From: Candidatus Campbellbacteria bacterium RIFOXYC2_FULL_35_25
GTDB lineage: Bacteria; Patescibacteriota; Minisyncoccia; Phycocordibacterales; UBA12079
Length of the DNA stretch: 41,069 nucleotides
Assembly: GCA_001774495.1 (NCBI GenBank)
Contig: MFAE01000008.1
Location: 16,150-57,218, forward strand
Reading direction: 5' to 3'
The stretch's first letter is position 1. Each line of letters begins with the position of its first letter. Position numbers and translations under genes: made by a program. Below are positions 24,926 through 41,069 of this stretch, piece after piece. Below the pieces are notes generated by a model. The model was not told the origin of the DNA, searched no databases, and saw nothing but the letters and a program-made list of their open reading frames with translations.

Positions 24926-24982
24926 TTGTATAAAAAAAAGCCCCACGAAGTGAAGCGGGGGGCTTCTTTCGTGGGACTGGGT
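24926..24982 (-). terminator. Repeated terminator element, copy A
   Basis: Near-identical to 25818-25876; directly follows the stop of 24982..25215. Confidence 0.8.
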
Positions 24983-25817: not shown

Positions 25818-25876
25818 TTGTATAAAAAAAGAAGCCCCACGAAGTGAAGCGCGGGGCTTCTTTCGTGGGGCTGGGT
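25818..25876 (-). terminator. Repeated terminator element, copy B
   Basis: AAGAAGCCCC/GGGGCTTCTT stem; 7 nt after the purC stop. Confidence 0.8.
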
Positions 25877-33817: not shown

Positions 33818-34024
33818 ATGCGACATTTTGTCAGAATCAACCCGTCTTTGGTAGAAGCTGTTATCTTACACACGCCAGGCAAAAAGAGACCCGCTGTTAT
33901 TTTTGTTGGACTCGGGACAAGGAATGATCCTGTTGAAATCATTGAAAGATACTCGTCTCAAAATGTATGTGACATTTCGGAGTTGGATGGGACCGTCCAT
34001 GTCTTCTCAACAGGAAATTGTTAA
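33818..34024 (+). CDS. Hypothetical protein (68 aa), orphan with SD
   Basis: GAGGAGG before ATG; terminator-like hairpin 34044-34078. Confidence 0.6.
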   Translation: MRHFVRINPSLVEAVILHTPGKKRPAVIFVGLGTRNDPVEIIERYSSQNVCDISELDGTVHVFSTGNC

Positions 34025-34098
34025 TGGTCCAGAACAGAGCCCACCCCTTTCTCGCGAGAGAAGGGGCATTTTTTTATTTAATTTCTTGTGATTTAGAG

Positions 34099-34124
34099 AA
34101 GGCCACCGTACGGGCGGTGGCCTT
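34099..34124. terminator. Hairpin between convergent orphan genes
   Basis: AAGGCCACCG-tacggg-CGGTGGCCTT. Confidence 0.7.
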
Positions 34125-37509: not shown

Positions 37510-38070
37510 GTGCGGAGAGGGAGGGATTTGACCTCCCAGTTCTAAGTTCGGACTTCGCCTTTCGGATTGCAAAGTTTGGAGGGATTTGGTCACAAAGTTT
37601 AGGTTTCGATGGGGAGGGATTTGACCTCCCAGTTCTAATTTCAGACTTCGCCCCTTCGGGACTCGTCTTCACTAAGAACTCGTAGGCTCGTCGCTCAAAT
37701 TTTTCTTTCGCTTCGCTACAGAAAAATATATTCGCTCTTGTTCAAATCCCTCCCTCACTTTAACAGCGACACAAAATAAAAACACTGCTTTGGCAGTGTT
37801 TTTATTTTGGTCGTGCGGAGAGATTGTCCACTTCGCTCGAACCTATTTTGAAAAGCAATCGCGAAGCGATTGAAGTTTAAATCTTACGCTCCGAGCAAAA
37901 GATAATTTCAAACCATAACTTACGCTCGACTAAATCGGAAGTTTGAAACAAACGAAACGACTTGTCGTTTCCACTTCGTTCCAACGACAACCAACTCCAA
38001 AAAAAATTCTTTTCCTTTTCTCTAAAAAATTTTGGGGGGCGAAAAAAGAAAGGAAAAAACGCAAAGAAAT

Positions 38071-38252
38071 TTTTTTGGGTTGGTTTCTGCTCATACTTCA
38101 CAGAAAGTCGTTTCTTAGTCGGATGTTTTAGATTCATTTTGTTTTCGTCGCTCGCTCTGTTGTAAAAAACACATTGCCTTTGGCAATGTGTTTTTTACAA
38201 CTCGCTCTCTCACGAAAACAAAACGAAACTAAAACGCTATTTATCTTGTGTT
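38071..38252. repeat. 182-bp direct repeat, copy 1 (nested hairpin)
   Basis: Identical to 39501-39681 except for one deleted C. Confidence 0.95.
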
Positions 38253-38378
38253 GTCTTTATTGAAATATAAAAATTTTTATTGAAAAAACAAGAAGATTAT
38301 GGAATAATAACAAAACTGAGTGGTGGTCACTCAGTAGTATTTTTTTAAAGTTCTTTTAAAACATTATGAGGTGGTAAC

Positions 38379-38954
38379 ATGCAAGTAGCTCAAGCTCAAA
38401 ATTTTGTTCCTCAAGTAAAAACCGTTCAGTTGTTTGATACCAAACAACAACCAACTCTCGGTCGAGAAATCATCCCAGCGGTTCATGGCGAGTATTATGG
38501 CTATTCTTCTGTATTTACAAGAGAAAGGCCCCTTTATGCACTAATGAAGTGTAAATCCAACAAAGATCGACCTGTAAGCGAGATTGTTGATTTAGGTTTA
38601 GAAGCTAATGCCTTCTTCCGGTTTAATGAGACGGATCAAAAGATCATCTCGATAAAAACAGCAAATAATCTCGGCTTACTACAGAGAGGAAAGACAAAAA
38701 TCGATTTTGATGACATCTGGTTCGCCCCAACTAACCTTACAGCCAAGCAATTTATGAAATTGCAGGCTAATAAAAACGAAAAAGAGTTGGTAAACTTATG
38801 CCAAAAAATACTTATCAACGGTCGTGATGCCGTTGAACTTCGCAAAGGATTGGTTGTGACGATGATGACCAGTAGTGAAAAATACGGCATGTTTTTGGTG
38901 AGCAAAATTACACCATTCTCAATTCAAATTGAGGCATGTCACATTTTGCTTTGA
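38379..38954 (+). CDS. Hypothetical protein (191 aa), cassette gene with SD
   Basis: GAGGTG before ATG; terminator ACACCACAGGA/TCCTGTGGTGT at 38976-39002. Confidence 0.75.
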   Translation: MQVAQAQNFVPQVKTVQLFDTKQQPTLGREIIPAVHGEYYGYSSVFTRERPLYALMKCKSNKDRPVSEIVDLGLEANAFFRFNETDQKIISIKTANNLGLLQRGKTKIDFDDIWFAPTNLTAKQFMKLQANKNEKELVNLCQKILINGRDAVELRKGLVVTMMTSSEKYGMFLVSKITPFSIQIEACHILL

Positions 38955-39038
38955 TACCTCAAACCTCAACCCGACACACCACAGGAACGAATCCTGTGGT
39001 GTTTTTTATTGTTTTATGTCATTATCTTTATTATCAAT

Positions 39039-39491
39039 ATGGAAATAAGAAATTATAATAAAAAAGATAAAGTTGCTGTGCAACATATTTTTGCTAAATA
39101 TTGGACAGATAGAGAATTTTTAGATGAGCTTGAGAAAAATTTGGACGGGGGCGAAGTTTATTTTTACGTTGCTGAAAAATACGACGAAATAATCGGTGTT
39201 GCAGGTTTTAGAAAAGCTCCAAAATATCTTCGTGATTATGCAGAAACAGAAAATCCTGTGGAGTTGTATATAATAGCTTCTAAAGAGAAAAACAAAGGTT
39301 TTGGAAACACTCTTGCACAAAAAATTATTGAAAAAGCAAAAAAAATGAATTTTACAGAAATAGAGTGTTATAGCCCCGAGACTCACAATAGTTCGTGGAA
39401 ATTTTATGAGAAGCTTGGATTTAAAAAGCACGGAATTATTAACGATCCAGATGATGGATACCCCGGAATGCTTTGGAGGAAAGTTTTGTAA
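39039..39491 (+). CDS. GNAT family N-acetyltransferase
   Basis: IRNY start, IIGVAG, KNKGFGNTL, KFYEKLGF. Confidence 0.88.
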   Translation: MEIRNYNKKDKVAVQHIFAKYWTDREFLDELEKNLDGGEVYFYVAEKYDEIIGVAGFRKAPKYLRDYAETENPVELYIIASKEKNKGFGNTLAQKIIEKAKKMNFTEIECYSPETHNSSWKFYEKLGFKKHGIINDPDDGYPGMLWRKVL

Positions 39492-39500
39492 GGAAAAGAA

Positions 39501-39681
39501 TTTTTTGGGTTGGTTTCTGCTCATACTTCACAGAAAGTCGTTTCTTAGTCGGATGTTTTAGATTCATTTTGTTTTCGTCGCTCGCTCTGTTGTAAAAAAC
39601 ACATTGCCTTTGGCAATGTGTTTTTTACAACTCGCTCTCTCACGAAAACAAAAGAAACTAAAACGCTATTTATCTTGTGTT
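39501..39681. repeat. 181-bp direct repeat, copy 2
   Basis: Begins 10 nt after the GNAT stop. Confidence 0.95.
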
Positions 39682-39810
39682 TGCCCCAACCCTCCCAGCG
39701 CACACAAAAAAGCTCCCAAACAGACAAAAACCACACTTCGTGTGGTTTTGTATGATAAAAGGGACAAATGGTGTATTTGTCCCTTTTAGCTTTGTGGAGA
39801 TTTGATATTT

Positions 39811-39963
39811 TTATGGTTTTTTGATGTATTTTACACCCCTACCAGCATTTCCAACTTGAATTATCTTTTGCTCTTTTTCAAGAATATTTAAGTATCTTGT
39901 TGCACTTCTTTTAGTAGTTCGTAGCAATTCTTGAACATCCGAGTTTGAAATATTTGGATTTGA
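39811..39963 (-). pseudogene. 3' fragment of a gene ending in a DeoR-like winged HTH
   Basis: SNPNISNSDVQELLRTTKRSATRYLNILEKEQKIIQVGNAGRGVKYIKKP*; no start codon; begins at TCAAATCC. Confidence 0.65.
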
Positions 39964-40140
39964 CCTCCCAGTTCTAAGTTCGGACTTCGCCCTACAGGCT
40001 CGCCCTCATTAAGAACTCGTAGGCTCGGCGTTCGTATTTTTCTTTCAGAAAAATATACTCACCCTTGTTCAAATCCCGACCTCTCTACCGTCAAGACATC
40101 AATATTCAAATACCTTAATCGGTATTTGAAATTGCTGTTG

Positions 40141-40227
40141 CGGAGAGGGAGGGATTTGAACCCTCGGAGGCTTTTACACCTCGGCACGTTAGCAGTGTGC
40201 TGGTTTAAACCACTCACCCACCTCTCC
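40141..40227 (-). tRNA. tRNA-Ser(GCU)
   Basis: GGAGAGG/CCTCTCC acceptor, CT[GCT]AA loop, long variable arm GAGG/CCTC, GAGGG-TTCAAAT-CCCTC T-arm; 87 nt; A31.C39 mismatch; CCA not encoded. Confidence 0.92.
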
Positions 40228-40252
40228 GTGTGTTCGTCAAATTATATTTTTA

Positions 40253-40476
40253 GGGAGGGATTTGGTCACAAATAATTTTTCTTTGAAAAATTTTCGCGAC
40301 CCCGACTCGTCTGTCTCGCTTCGCTCGACATAACTCCGTCCCTTGATTTCAGACAGAAAACAAAGCAGTTTGCTTTCTTTTCTGATAAATATTTTTTATA
40401 AAAGATAAAAAATATTTATCAGAACTTAAATCAAGCCTCGGCACGTTAGCAGTGTGCTGGTTTCACCCACCTCTCC
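40253..40476 (-). pseudogene. Upstream tRNA-Ser(GCU) copy with a D-loop deletion and hairpin insertions
   Basis: ggagaggtgggtga[delta gtggttta]aaccagcacactgctaacgtgccgagg retained; then inserts; aaatccctccc at 40253-40263. Confidence 0.85.
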
Positions 40477-40656
40477 GTATATTTATATTATACTCTCAAT
40501 CTGCCCCTTCATATTTATTTGACCTCCCATAAAATAACATATTTTACTATTAAAATCCATAAGTTTTAGACAAAAAACACATAAACAGAGAAACAAAAAC
40601 AACGAACGGCTCCGCCGTTCGTTGTTTTTGCTGTTAGCTGTCAGCTGTAGGCTTTT

Positions 40657-41069
40657 TCAATGCGCCACCGTTATTACAAATATCTTTTTTGCACCATACC
40701 TCTTGAGGGTTTTGCTCGCTTCTTTAATTGTTGCTCCTGTGGTTGTAACATCATCAAGTAAAATTATATTTCTTTTTCTGATTTCGTGCGGATTTCTTAC
40801 TGTAAAGCAATTCTTCAAATTGTTTAATCTTTCTTTTTTATTTTTCGAGCGGGATTGAGGTGGAGTATTTTTTATTTTTATTAAAATATTTTTTTTAAAA
40901 ATAAAAGAAGAATTATTATCTAGCAAACTCATTTCTTCAGCAATTAATTCAGATTGGTTAAACCCTCTTTCCCTGAGGCGGGACTTTGAAAGGGGAATGG
41001 GGATAAGGATTGGGTCTGCGAAGTTTGAGAAGGTTTGTAAATCCGACATTTTTTCCAACAGGCGGTCGT
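40657..41069 (-). CDS. comF: ComF family phosphoribosyltransferase-like protein, 5' partial
   Basis: PIPLSKSRLRERGFNQSELIA, ILLDDVTTTGAT; frame is open to the window edge. Confidence 0.88.
   Translation of the reverse strand, partial: DRLLEKMSDLQTFSNFADPILIPIPLSKSRLRERGFNQSELIAEEMSLLDNNSSFIFKKNILIKIKNTPPQSRSKNKKERLNNLKNCFTVRNPHEIRKRNIILLDDVTTTGATIKEASKTLKRYGAKKIFVITVAH

Follow-up and report, generated by a model that had tools for sequence, protein, structure and literature searches.

Tandem accretion of integrative islands and the persistence of integrase-less, att-flanked remnants are known from the CIME-type (cis-mobilizable) elements related to streptococcal integrative and conjugative elements (ICEs) and from the composite staphylococcal cassette chromosome (SCC) elements of staphylococci. 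Serine integrases exchange strands at a 2-bp core and create no 190-bp repeats. The attC site of integrons has the order 5′ R″ (RYYYAAC)...R′ (GTTRRRY) 3′ and an imperfect stem with extrahelical bases, and the cassette boundaries lie inside the R′ core. We analysed a 41,069-nt stretch of DNA (the window) from the genome of an ultra-small groundwater bacterium, Candidatus Campbellbacteria bacterium RIFOXYC2_FULL_35_25 (contig MFAE01000008.1, positions 16,150 to 57,218; genome G000 below, 782 kb in 15 contigs), in which two copies of a structured ~190-bp repeat, R, enclose a two-gene cassette. An original prediction, made from the letters alone, had read this arrangement as a very recent, integron-like cassette capture that used the R hairpin as its recombination site. 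Our comparison suggests instead that the locus works like the tandem accretion and decay of integrative islands, in a CIME-like or composite-SCC-like manner, and we give an even chance to the view that two island units, each an arm plus its cargo, were joined here by short-homology recombination.

In the arrangement that we propose, one end of mobile defence islands in a Paceibacterota genus would be a conserved non-coding arm rich in hairpins, made up of block A and R, with R as its inner ~190 bp. Unit 1 would consist of A, the first copy of R (R1) and a cargo of two genes, one encoding a 191-aa protein and the other a GNAT acetyltransferase. Unit 2, head to tail with unit 1, would consist of the last 17 nt of an A stem, the second copy of R (R2), block B and a truncated gene, C′, and would be followed by a tRNA-Ser gene. 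The parts of the locus are:

37511..37531, minus strand: 21-nt exact copy of the tRNA-Ser(GCU) 3′ end (40139-40159), the outermost att-like scar of the island region.
37814..38087, plus strand: block A, hairpin-rich outer part of the island arm (from inverted repeats and relatives).
38063..38252, plus strand: R1, inner part of the island arm, with a bidirectional-terminator-like inner stem (38159-38201) flanked by A6/T6 (from repeats and fold).
38253..39489, plus strand: two-gene module, putative cargo of unit 1 (promoter-like site, two genes, terminator).
39490..39506, plus strand: 17 nt, AAGGAAAAGAATTTTTT, which overlap the GNAT stop and form the cassette 3′ end in all close alleles; reverse-complementary, without mismatch, to the A left arm.
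39494..39681, plus strand: R2, with inner stem 39589-39631 and outer stem 39555-39578/39642-39664; it runs straight into B, as R does in the empty sites of relatives.
39682..39810, plus strand: block B, a conserved spacer with two hairpin terminators (39727-39749, 39757-39786); it adjoins R without a break in every empty site.
39811..39963, minus strand: C′, 3′ remnant (~50 codons) of an island winged-helix regulator gene (from comparison with full copies).
39951..40086, no strand assigned: copy of a tRNA-T-arm-like repeat that truncates C′ (from repeat finding).
40140..40227, minus strand: tRNA-Ser(GCU), probable integration target of the island remnant.

One cargo type would start with the GNAT pair and another with B-C, and a fusion of 'A-R-GNAT pair' to '(A foot)-R-B-C' would be present in G000 as well as in genome G015, contig L074 and sequencing run X14. 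The join would run across 12-17 nt, (A)AGGAAAAGAA-T6/7, which ends the cassette and is also the foot of every A stem. It may have formed by tandem accretion of two island units with later deletion, or by one-sided, homology-facilitated insertion of an 'A-R-cassette' donor; the order of events is one that we infer. If the units were joined through A-stem homology, then the apparent duplication of R would represent two copies of an element-internal module and not a target duplication made by cutting of the R hairpin. The likeness to CIME and composite SCC elements lies in the two units of a site-specific island family standing head to tail beside a tRNA gene, in the element-end repeats that bracket a small recombinase-less cargo, in the stacked partial tRNA 3′ ends and in the swappable cargo between conserved ends. 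In contrast to those elements, what is repeated here is no att core but a 190-bp structured module, set ~250 bp in from the element end, and it is the 12-17-nt A-stem homology that contains the joint; the recombinase belongs to the large serine type, and the islands are found in Patescibacteria.

Because the corresponding A-R-B sites of relatives hold one R, we conclude that the two-gene block is an accessory insertion, as the original prediction had supposed. In these empty sites A, a single R, B and C are contiguous; they were found in genomes G014 (contig C114; identity to the window 97.5% in A, 94% in R and 93% in B), G018 (C17) and G001 (C32) and in metagenome contigs L035 and L032. Run X21 also shows the empty site, as a joint from 38252 to 39747 at ~100x with no cassette depth. 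Within the G000 population, a 190-bp repeat being too long for k-mer unitigs to phase, the empty allele was judged by depth alone, the depth of the cassette being about that of the flank.

The relatives also show what a whole island looks like. Its usual order is A-R-B-C-variable defence genes-XRE-inverted A-recombinase, complete in G018 and G001 and present up to the inverted A in L035. In all three, the second A copy lies inverted 7-9 kb away, and between the two A copies are C, a small membrane winged-helix gene, an XRE gene and genome-specific defence genes (AbiU2, ThsB-TIR, GIY-YIG and LexA-methylase in L035; OLD-family ATPase and UvrD-like helicase genes and methylases in G001). Full-length C (214-223 aa) was found on G000 contig C14, in G018 and in L035. 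Directly outside the inverted A, G018 (C17) and G001 (C32) encode a ~520-aa protein with Resolvase, Recombinase and Zn_ribbon domains, and the 3′ end of this large serine recombinase gene in G001 overlaps tRNA-Glu. The islands resemble elements mobilized by large serine recombinases (phiC31, Bxb1, SPbeta, SCCmec ccr) in this protein, where G018 and G001 are concerned, in their tRNA adjacency and in the long inverted arm copies around variable defence cargo, whereas the window copy has lost the recombinase and most of the cargo. Since serine integrases make no 190-bp repeats, the duplication of R would be a secondary rearrangement and not an integration product.

Genes for tRNA-Glu, -Arg, -Ala or -Asp lie within 0-2 kb of an island or a solitary A in G001, G018, G000 (C14) and G015. 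In the window, A has at its outer edge TGCGGAGAG (37816-37824), identical to the final 9 nt of tRNA-Ser(GCU), and this displaced 3′-end copy, the one at 37511-37531 and the tRNA-gene location are what is expected of an integrated island. A second partial island of G000, on contig C14, adjoins tRNA-Ala; besides A, whose hairpin apex has taken a 200-bp insert, it comprises other defence genes, full C and an inverted B, and it lacks the R core.

Comparison with a core gene points to horizontal exchange. For recG, identity is 72-74% within the genus and 66-68% to G001. Between species the arm (A + R) is 83-97% identical, and the A-R-B segment of the window is 93-97% identical to that of G014 and 75-87% to that of G018 (gene C 91.5%). 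The genes next to the islands differ between G000, G018 and G001. The segment therefore shows both marks of mobility, an identity above that of the core and a differing position, and because identity is far above that of recG and the neighbours differ, we conclude that A-R-B and the cassette are a horizontally exchanged element.

Where the units may have been joined can be read from the cassette alleles. The left junction, ...CTTGTGTT|GTCTTTATTG, is constant in G000, L034 (an 86% lineage), X10, X11 and X14, and all close alleles have ...TTTTGTAAGGAAAA(G/T)AATTTTTT as the cassette's right end. The sequence past the cassette end, ...TAAGGAAAAGAATTTTTT, varies between alleles, with three kinds of continuation after the T-run:

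G000, G015, L074, X14: GGGTTGG..., which is R.
X10: GGAGTTGGTTGTCGTTGGAA (TGGAGTTGGTTGTCGTTGGAA), the reverse complement of the outer A left arm.
X11, L067/L068: unrelated DNA.

The 17 nt at 39490-39506 are 100% complementary to 38001-38017 in the A left arm, which bears out the predicted complementarity between the flank of R2 and that arm; native A right arms carry a AACGCAAA bulge, unlike the 17 nt after GNAT. Because the 17 nt match the A left arm and the native arms are bulged, the variable joint is placed in the T-run at the A-stem foot and not in the R palindrome. The 17-nt stretch is an A-arm remnant carried along with the cassette. The edges of the repeat lie ~95 nt 5′ and ~50 nt 3′ of the R palindrome, which together with the variable joint speaks against the hairpin as the recombination site. 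Nor is a very recent capture supported, because the same junctions, R end to cassette and GNAT to R, are found in lineages 3-15% diverged (G015, L034, L074, X10, X11, X14).

The same alleles bear on a Campbell-type single crossover, which we consider unlikely. Here a small circle with one R and the gene pair would have entered a resident R by RecA acting on ~190 bp of homology, and R x R excision would produce the patchy pattern of occupied and empty sites. Such a circle would behave like an IS26-style translocatable unit or an integrating plasmid, with which the locus shares a repeat-cargo-repeat layout interconvertible with a one-repeat circle, except that R has no transposase. It would explain why empty sites have one R and occupied sites two, why both junctions are constant, as a circle would carry them, and why R1 and R2 are identical. 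The cassettes of G000 and G015 are 96.9% identical and the adjoining R only 92.5%, as if R had been swapped with the resident copy, and the k-mer graph would be the same for an integrated cassette as for a circle plus an empty site. However, a 2638-nt unitig of X11 runs from the A-tail through R and the cassette into at least 255 nt unlike R, with no second R, and in X10 and L067 other sequence follows that T-run. These alleles therefore lack the fixed right joint that a circle would give, and their varied 3′ continuations are also a difference from IS26 units. In addition, the depth of the cassette (27.3) is close to that of the flank (28.5), with no sign of excess circles or of empty alleles, and the first circle would still need two illegitimate joints.

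Rather less probable again is a one-step duplicative insertion by template switching (fork stalling and template switching, FoSTeS, or microhomology-mediated break-induced replication, MMBIR), in which a fork stalled at the R palindrome would switch by the microhomology TTGT to a foreign gene-pair template and return via GAATTTTTTG ~190 bp upstream, duplicating the target. A long palindrome is a plausible fork barrier, and R1 and R2 would be identical at birth. The left junction has the microhomology TTGTG|TTGTC relative to the native upstream sequence, TTATTGTCATTTATTG, of the Campbellbacteria pair, and the right junction lies in a GAA-T run with A/T-rich microhomology. Yet X11 has the left junction without a second R, and the 17 nt are a perfect complement of the A left arm across four continuations, which a switch to the native right arm would not give. 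Moreover, the junctions are common to lineages 3-15% diverged, in which identity at birth would be lost without conversion.

The fusion of two island units has its own difficulties, and several observations weigh against it. Over ~180 bp not a single substitution separates R1 from R2, yet variants of the island diverge by 6-17% in R, and the two remnants within G000 by 6-7% in A and B. Independently acquired units should differ, and therefore the model calls for gene conversion acting over 1.4 kb, or else for units that were almost identical and were joined very recently. An identical k-mer graph and identical junctions would result from a 1.43-kb circle of R plus cassette, free or re-integrating. 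Both junctions stand on one contig only in G000 and its re-assemblies L072 and L073, and the X10 and X11 alleles are single short-read unitigs (depths 3.4 and 12.3) from mixed communities, of whose continuations only 30 nt are readable. A recombinase gene is present at neither G000 locus (window or C14); the only large serine recombinase gene of the genome is on contig C13. Finally, in groundwater metatranscriptome runs the locus was unrepresented except for 28-nt tRNA-Ser words. On the reading as fused island units, gene conversion could keep R1 equal to R2, and recombination between them could delete the cassette.

An assembly artefact, that is, a chimeric or collapsed join of two strains with one R each, is extremely improbable. 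Room for it is left by the length of R, which exceeds that of short reads, by L072 and L073 starting at the hairpin centre and by Logan unitigs breaking at the R edges. Against it, depths in run X1 are 28.5 for the left flank, 27.3 for the cassette and 54.6 for R, a twofold value that means two R copies, and an X1 unitig (38194-39530) leads from the unique C-containing end of R1 through the entire cassette into R2 at depth 27.3. Each junction is covered by unitigs in four public runs (X1 and three more). The public contigs L072 and L073, made by different assemblers, match 38169-41069 at 99.9%, that is, from the centre of the copy 1 hairpin through the cassette, copy 2, B and tRNA-Ser to comF. 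No loose-end alternative junctions were present other than those of the C14 paralogue. Public short-read data thus support the layout as it stands.

R1 (38063/4-38252) and R2 (39494/5-39681) are 98.4% identical over 190 columns with a period of 1430, as determined by BLAST and repeat finding. The near-identical structured repeats and their period had been predicted correctly, but they do not differ by one base: global alignment gives no substitutions and three single-base indels, namely A3 versus A2 and T7 versus T6 at the left edge and one C at ~38224 of copy 1 that is absent from copy 2. Both copies have the predicted perfect 20-bp inner stem with a TTT loop (38159-38178/38182-38201 and 39589-39608/39612-39631), and CT-rich internal loops, CGCTCGCTCT and CTCGCTCTCTC, lie on either side of it. 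An outer stem is present as well, but with 24-nt arms (38125-38148/38212-38235 in R1, 92% complementary) in place of the 12 bp that had been proposed, and the larger hairpin to the left, in A, is real (arms 37997-38022/38053-38078). Against shuffled controls, 37920-38260 (left-hand hairpin included) folds with a z-score of −10.1 and copy 2 with one of −6.5.

The inner stem of R is conserved as structure. In it, CACA/TGTG is replaced in other lineages by GAAG/CTTC, GATG/CATC or ATC/GAT, and double changes occur at nine stem pairs (8 sequences); R of L032 has a wholly different stem and an ~50-nt insert in the inner-stem loop. The A-run and T-run are retained across lineages, and the loop-flanking CGTCGCTCGCTCT, CTCGCTC.CTC and ~95 nt on the 5′ side are near-invariant. 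G-U and C-A combinations in the stems are balanced (~7 cells each); they give no strand information and do not separate RNA from DNA as the folded form.

The core of the inner stem, ACACATTGCC/GGCAATGTGT, is 10 bp long and G+C-containing, with T6 after it and, for the other strand, A6 before it, a design that recurs in the window at 37772-37809 and 40594-40630. The features of an intrinsic terminator (G+C-containing stem-loop, T-run and compensatory changes) are thus present in the sequence, and the core stem with A6/T6 has the form of a two-way intrinsic terminator. A simple terminator scan, which took the full 20-bp stem, omitted R. The hairpin might act as a two-way transcription insulator at the border of arm and cargo. 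R resembles bidirectional intrinsic terminators in its G+C-containing hairpin with A6 before and T6 after and in a stem that covaries as its sequence drifts; in contrast, it adds a 24-bp outer stem, invariant CT-rich loops and ~95 nt of invariant 5′ sequence, which a plain terminator does not need. With its unusual conservation, invariant loops about a covarying stem, R is a candidate for a functional test.

Other identities considered for R fared poorly. A XerCD/dif module is unlikely, since the stem sequence is not conserved and R is thus unlikely to be a fixed protein-binding core. Shape-based readings as a 6S-RNA-like RNA, retron, tracrRNA or omega-RNA, or single-strand origin were dropped: the partner genes (reverse transcriptase, Cas, TnpB, Rep) are absent and there is no Rfam support, A, R and B giving only chance miRNA-like hairpins and no meaningful match in Rfam at gathering and permissive thresholds. 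Hairpin elements of the IS200/IS605 type or palindrome-associated transposable elements (PATEs), which depend on a Y1 HUH enzyme, were excluded because the empty sites retain the full R; no Y1 open reading frame (ORF) is present on the two island contigs. Elsewhere in G000 there are six Y1_Tnp (PF01797)-like ORFs of 228-256 aa (C13:308-661, C6:115085, C6:20240, C6:2681, C10:24284 and C7:6062), and all but one of the other family genomes have 1-8 each. They are possibly associated with repetitive extragenic palindromes (RAYT-like) and could relate to the abundance of hairpin inserts.

A dedicated folded, attC-like site for a site-specific recombinase, and with it a nascent cassette array, would be closest to the original prediction. 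R is a long imperfect palindrome with unpaired, asymmetric CT-rich loops by which the two strands could be told apart, compensatory changes maintain its stem, CGTCGCTCGCTCT is invariant, the cassette is compact and promoter-led, and R of G015 is broken exactly at the hairpin apex. As in integrons, a compact gene module stands beside an imperfect palindrome whose structure is conserved over its sequence, and occupied and empty alleles exist. Unlike in integrons, there is no IntI, no array and no diversity of cassettes or sites, the hairpin copies are identical, and the cassette has promoters of its own and forms two transcription units. The repeat boundaries fall beyond the hairpin, and the variable joint is in the T-run of the A arm. 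The stem termini, GTTGTAA...TTACAAC, have the reverse of the R″/R′ order, with T at a purine position, and the stem is perfect, without extrahelical bases. R never exceeds two copies, and one cargo type only lies between copies. The recombinases of G000 are one tyrosine enzyme (Xer-like, on C6) and one serine enzyme (on C13), neither of them nearby: a PF00589 search of the whole genome gave a single match, of ~310 aa on C6, and none on the contig of the window. Because almost every family genome has a similar gene, the Xer-type gene on C6 looks like a housekeeping one. With a single Xer-like recombinase on another contig, no arrays and no second cargo type, the integron-like interpretation is not supported, and an attC-like site is very improbable. 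A literature search for integrons or arms of this kind in Patescibacteria found nothing beyond resistome surveys.

In G000, full-length R occurs only at the two window sites. Among the 19 family genomes, G014, G018 and G001 (the last from a second genus) have one R each and G015 has half a copy, and BLAST found R in 0 of ~380 other genomes of the order. R is thus confined to two genera with a maximum of two copies per genome, two being found only in G000. A covariance model detected no diverged copies in the family genomes and none near distant homologues of the gene pair. Scans with the R core gave no match in IMG/VR and, in GTDB, only the known relatives plus one chance match in a Pirellulales genome. 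Neither R arrays nor a second cargo type between R copies was found in the 19 family genomes, ~400 order genomes, JGI metagenomes, IMG/VR and GTDB representatives.

Breaks and inserts at hairpin apexes were seen at several places. At 2575-2600 of L024 (G015:C95), a deletion (...GTTGCC|ATTTGTCCC...) runs from one hairpin loop to another: the R inner stem keeps its 5′ arm, the second B hairpin its 3′ arm, and the two arms now abut. Cleavage or slippage at the tips of hairpins would be expected to leave such a product. On this contig a 237-aa ORF replaces the 5′ half of the 191-aa gene. The hairpin apexes of the arm have repeatedly taken inserts that are palindromic or bear terminal inverted repeats (G000 C14:24648-24849, L033 and L032), the one in L033 being 37 nt long and lying within the small A hairpin.

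Within the cassette, the features are:

38280-38308, plus strand: promoter-like site.
38379-38954, plus strand: conserved hypothetical gene, 191 aa, with the Shine-Dalgarno sequence GAGGTGG ahead of it.
38976-39002, plus strand: strong terminator between the two cassette genes.
39039-39491, plus strand: GNAT acetyltransferase gene, 150 aa (Pfam PF00583).

The GNAT assignment is well above threshold (51.7 bits against a cut-off of 20.7, E=1e-13), with best PDB sequence matches at E ~1e-4. The original prediction had named these two genes, a Shine-Dalgarno-led gene and a GNAT gene, but the first is no orphan: at least 65 full-length homologues (35-68% identity) occur in Patescibacteria. The pair of a ~193-aa gene and the same 150-aa GNAT gene was also found in Campbellbacteria, in Yonathbacteria and on one further contig, with neither R nor flanking repeats at these gene-pair loci. 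There, similarity to the window sets in at the promoter TTTATTGAAAAAA, ~20 bp to the inside of the left junction, and goes no further than the GNAT stop codon. The gene pair is an independent module. The 191-aa protein has no match in Pfam, NCBIfam or PADLOC and no informative match in the PDB; its AlphaFold model (pLDDT 84) shows a domain of mixed alpha/beta fold, for which a DUF4466 structure was the only match, and a weak one. In GNAT toxin-antitoxin systems, a small ribbon-helix-helix (RHH)/DUF1778 antitoxin gene overlaps or abuts the GNAT toxin gene in one operon. A pair of this type (TacT/AtaT) is not supported here, the upstream gene being 191 aa long with none of these family matches and a strong terminator separating the genes.

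In two distant contexts (L039 3-1062 and L044 4271-5389), the 191-aa family gene adjoins a gene for an ATP-grasp MvdD-like ligase, in L044 with radical-SAM/SPASM genes as well; this neighbourhood hints at a link of the gene pair to peptide modification. At 3200-3880 of L037 (Campbellbacteria MFAB01000016.1) a tRNA gene appears, by eye, to be split after the anticodon loop by an ~600-nt insert with a small ORF rich in Cys and His; the gene pair follows immediately downstream. The anticodon loop, CTGTGAA, would make it tRNA-His GUG, again by eye.

Further observations concern the surroundings of the islands. The tRNA-T-arm-like repeats are ~115-150 bp long and end in inverted motif copies, GGGAGGGATTTGA...TCAAATCCCTCCC; copies lie at 37604-37760 and 39951-40086 of the window and, elsewhere in G000, at C5:53074-53188, C2:94793-94884, C2:88231-88305 and C6:80895-81006. 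Upstream of the intact tRNA-Ser(GCU), the window holds a broken second one (40245-40480), with ~200 nt of nested hairpins in the variable-arm region and a TGGTCAC... insert in the T-loop; GGAGGGATTTGGTCACAAA from this region recurs at 37578-37596. A 54-nt G+C-rich terminator hairpin (24929-24982 and 25823-25876, 93%) flanks an 840-bp minus-strand two-gene unit in a region too diverged in relatives for empty-site alignment.

Just past the end of the C14 island are five direct copies (88-94%) of a 120-280-bp intergenic repeat (33997-34120, 40697-40897, 42813-43115, 44381-44650 and 47009-47181), located between gene units of 1.5-6.7 kb. The repeat contains ctataaactataaactaaaaactattctttctcc and has a TTGACA promoter-like box at its end, and the set of copies resembles a cassette array more closely than the R pair. 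Two islands encode LexA (DNA-binding and S24 peptidase domains) fused N-terminally to DNA methyltransferases (L035 3521-5932 and L022 9875-11266), a fusion that would tie a restriction-modification methylase to an SOS-type self-cleaving switch.

A bolder reading, which we think quite improbable, is that A + R is a dedicated cis-acting module, folded DNA or structured RNA, that marks the borders of cargo units in serine-recombinase islands of the Candidate Phyla Radiation (CPR). If so, recombination at the A-stem foot would stack, swap or invert units of 'R + cargo', and the invariant CT-rich loops and 95-nt 5′ segment of R would be protein- or RNA-recognition surfaces and not parts of a terminator. 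This would amount to a cassette system of integron-like or SCC-like logic built from different parts. For the locus itself, a false lead is removed: it is not an integron-like capture site, and the supposed orphan belongs to a family widespread in Patescibacteria, with a GNAT gene as its usual partner. For ultra-small CPR genomes poor in mobile-element enzymes, the fusion of island units would suggest one way in which gene content may change, with structured non-coding arms serving as portable homology that would let cargo units join, vanish or swap between species ~73% identical in core genes.

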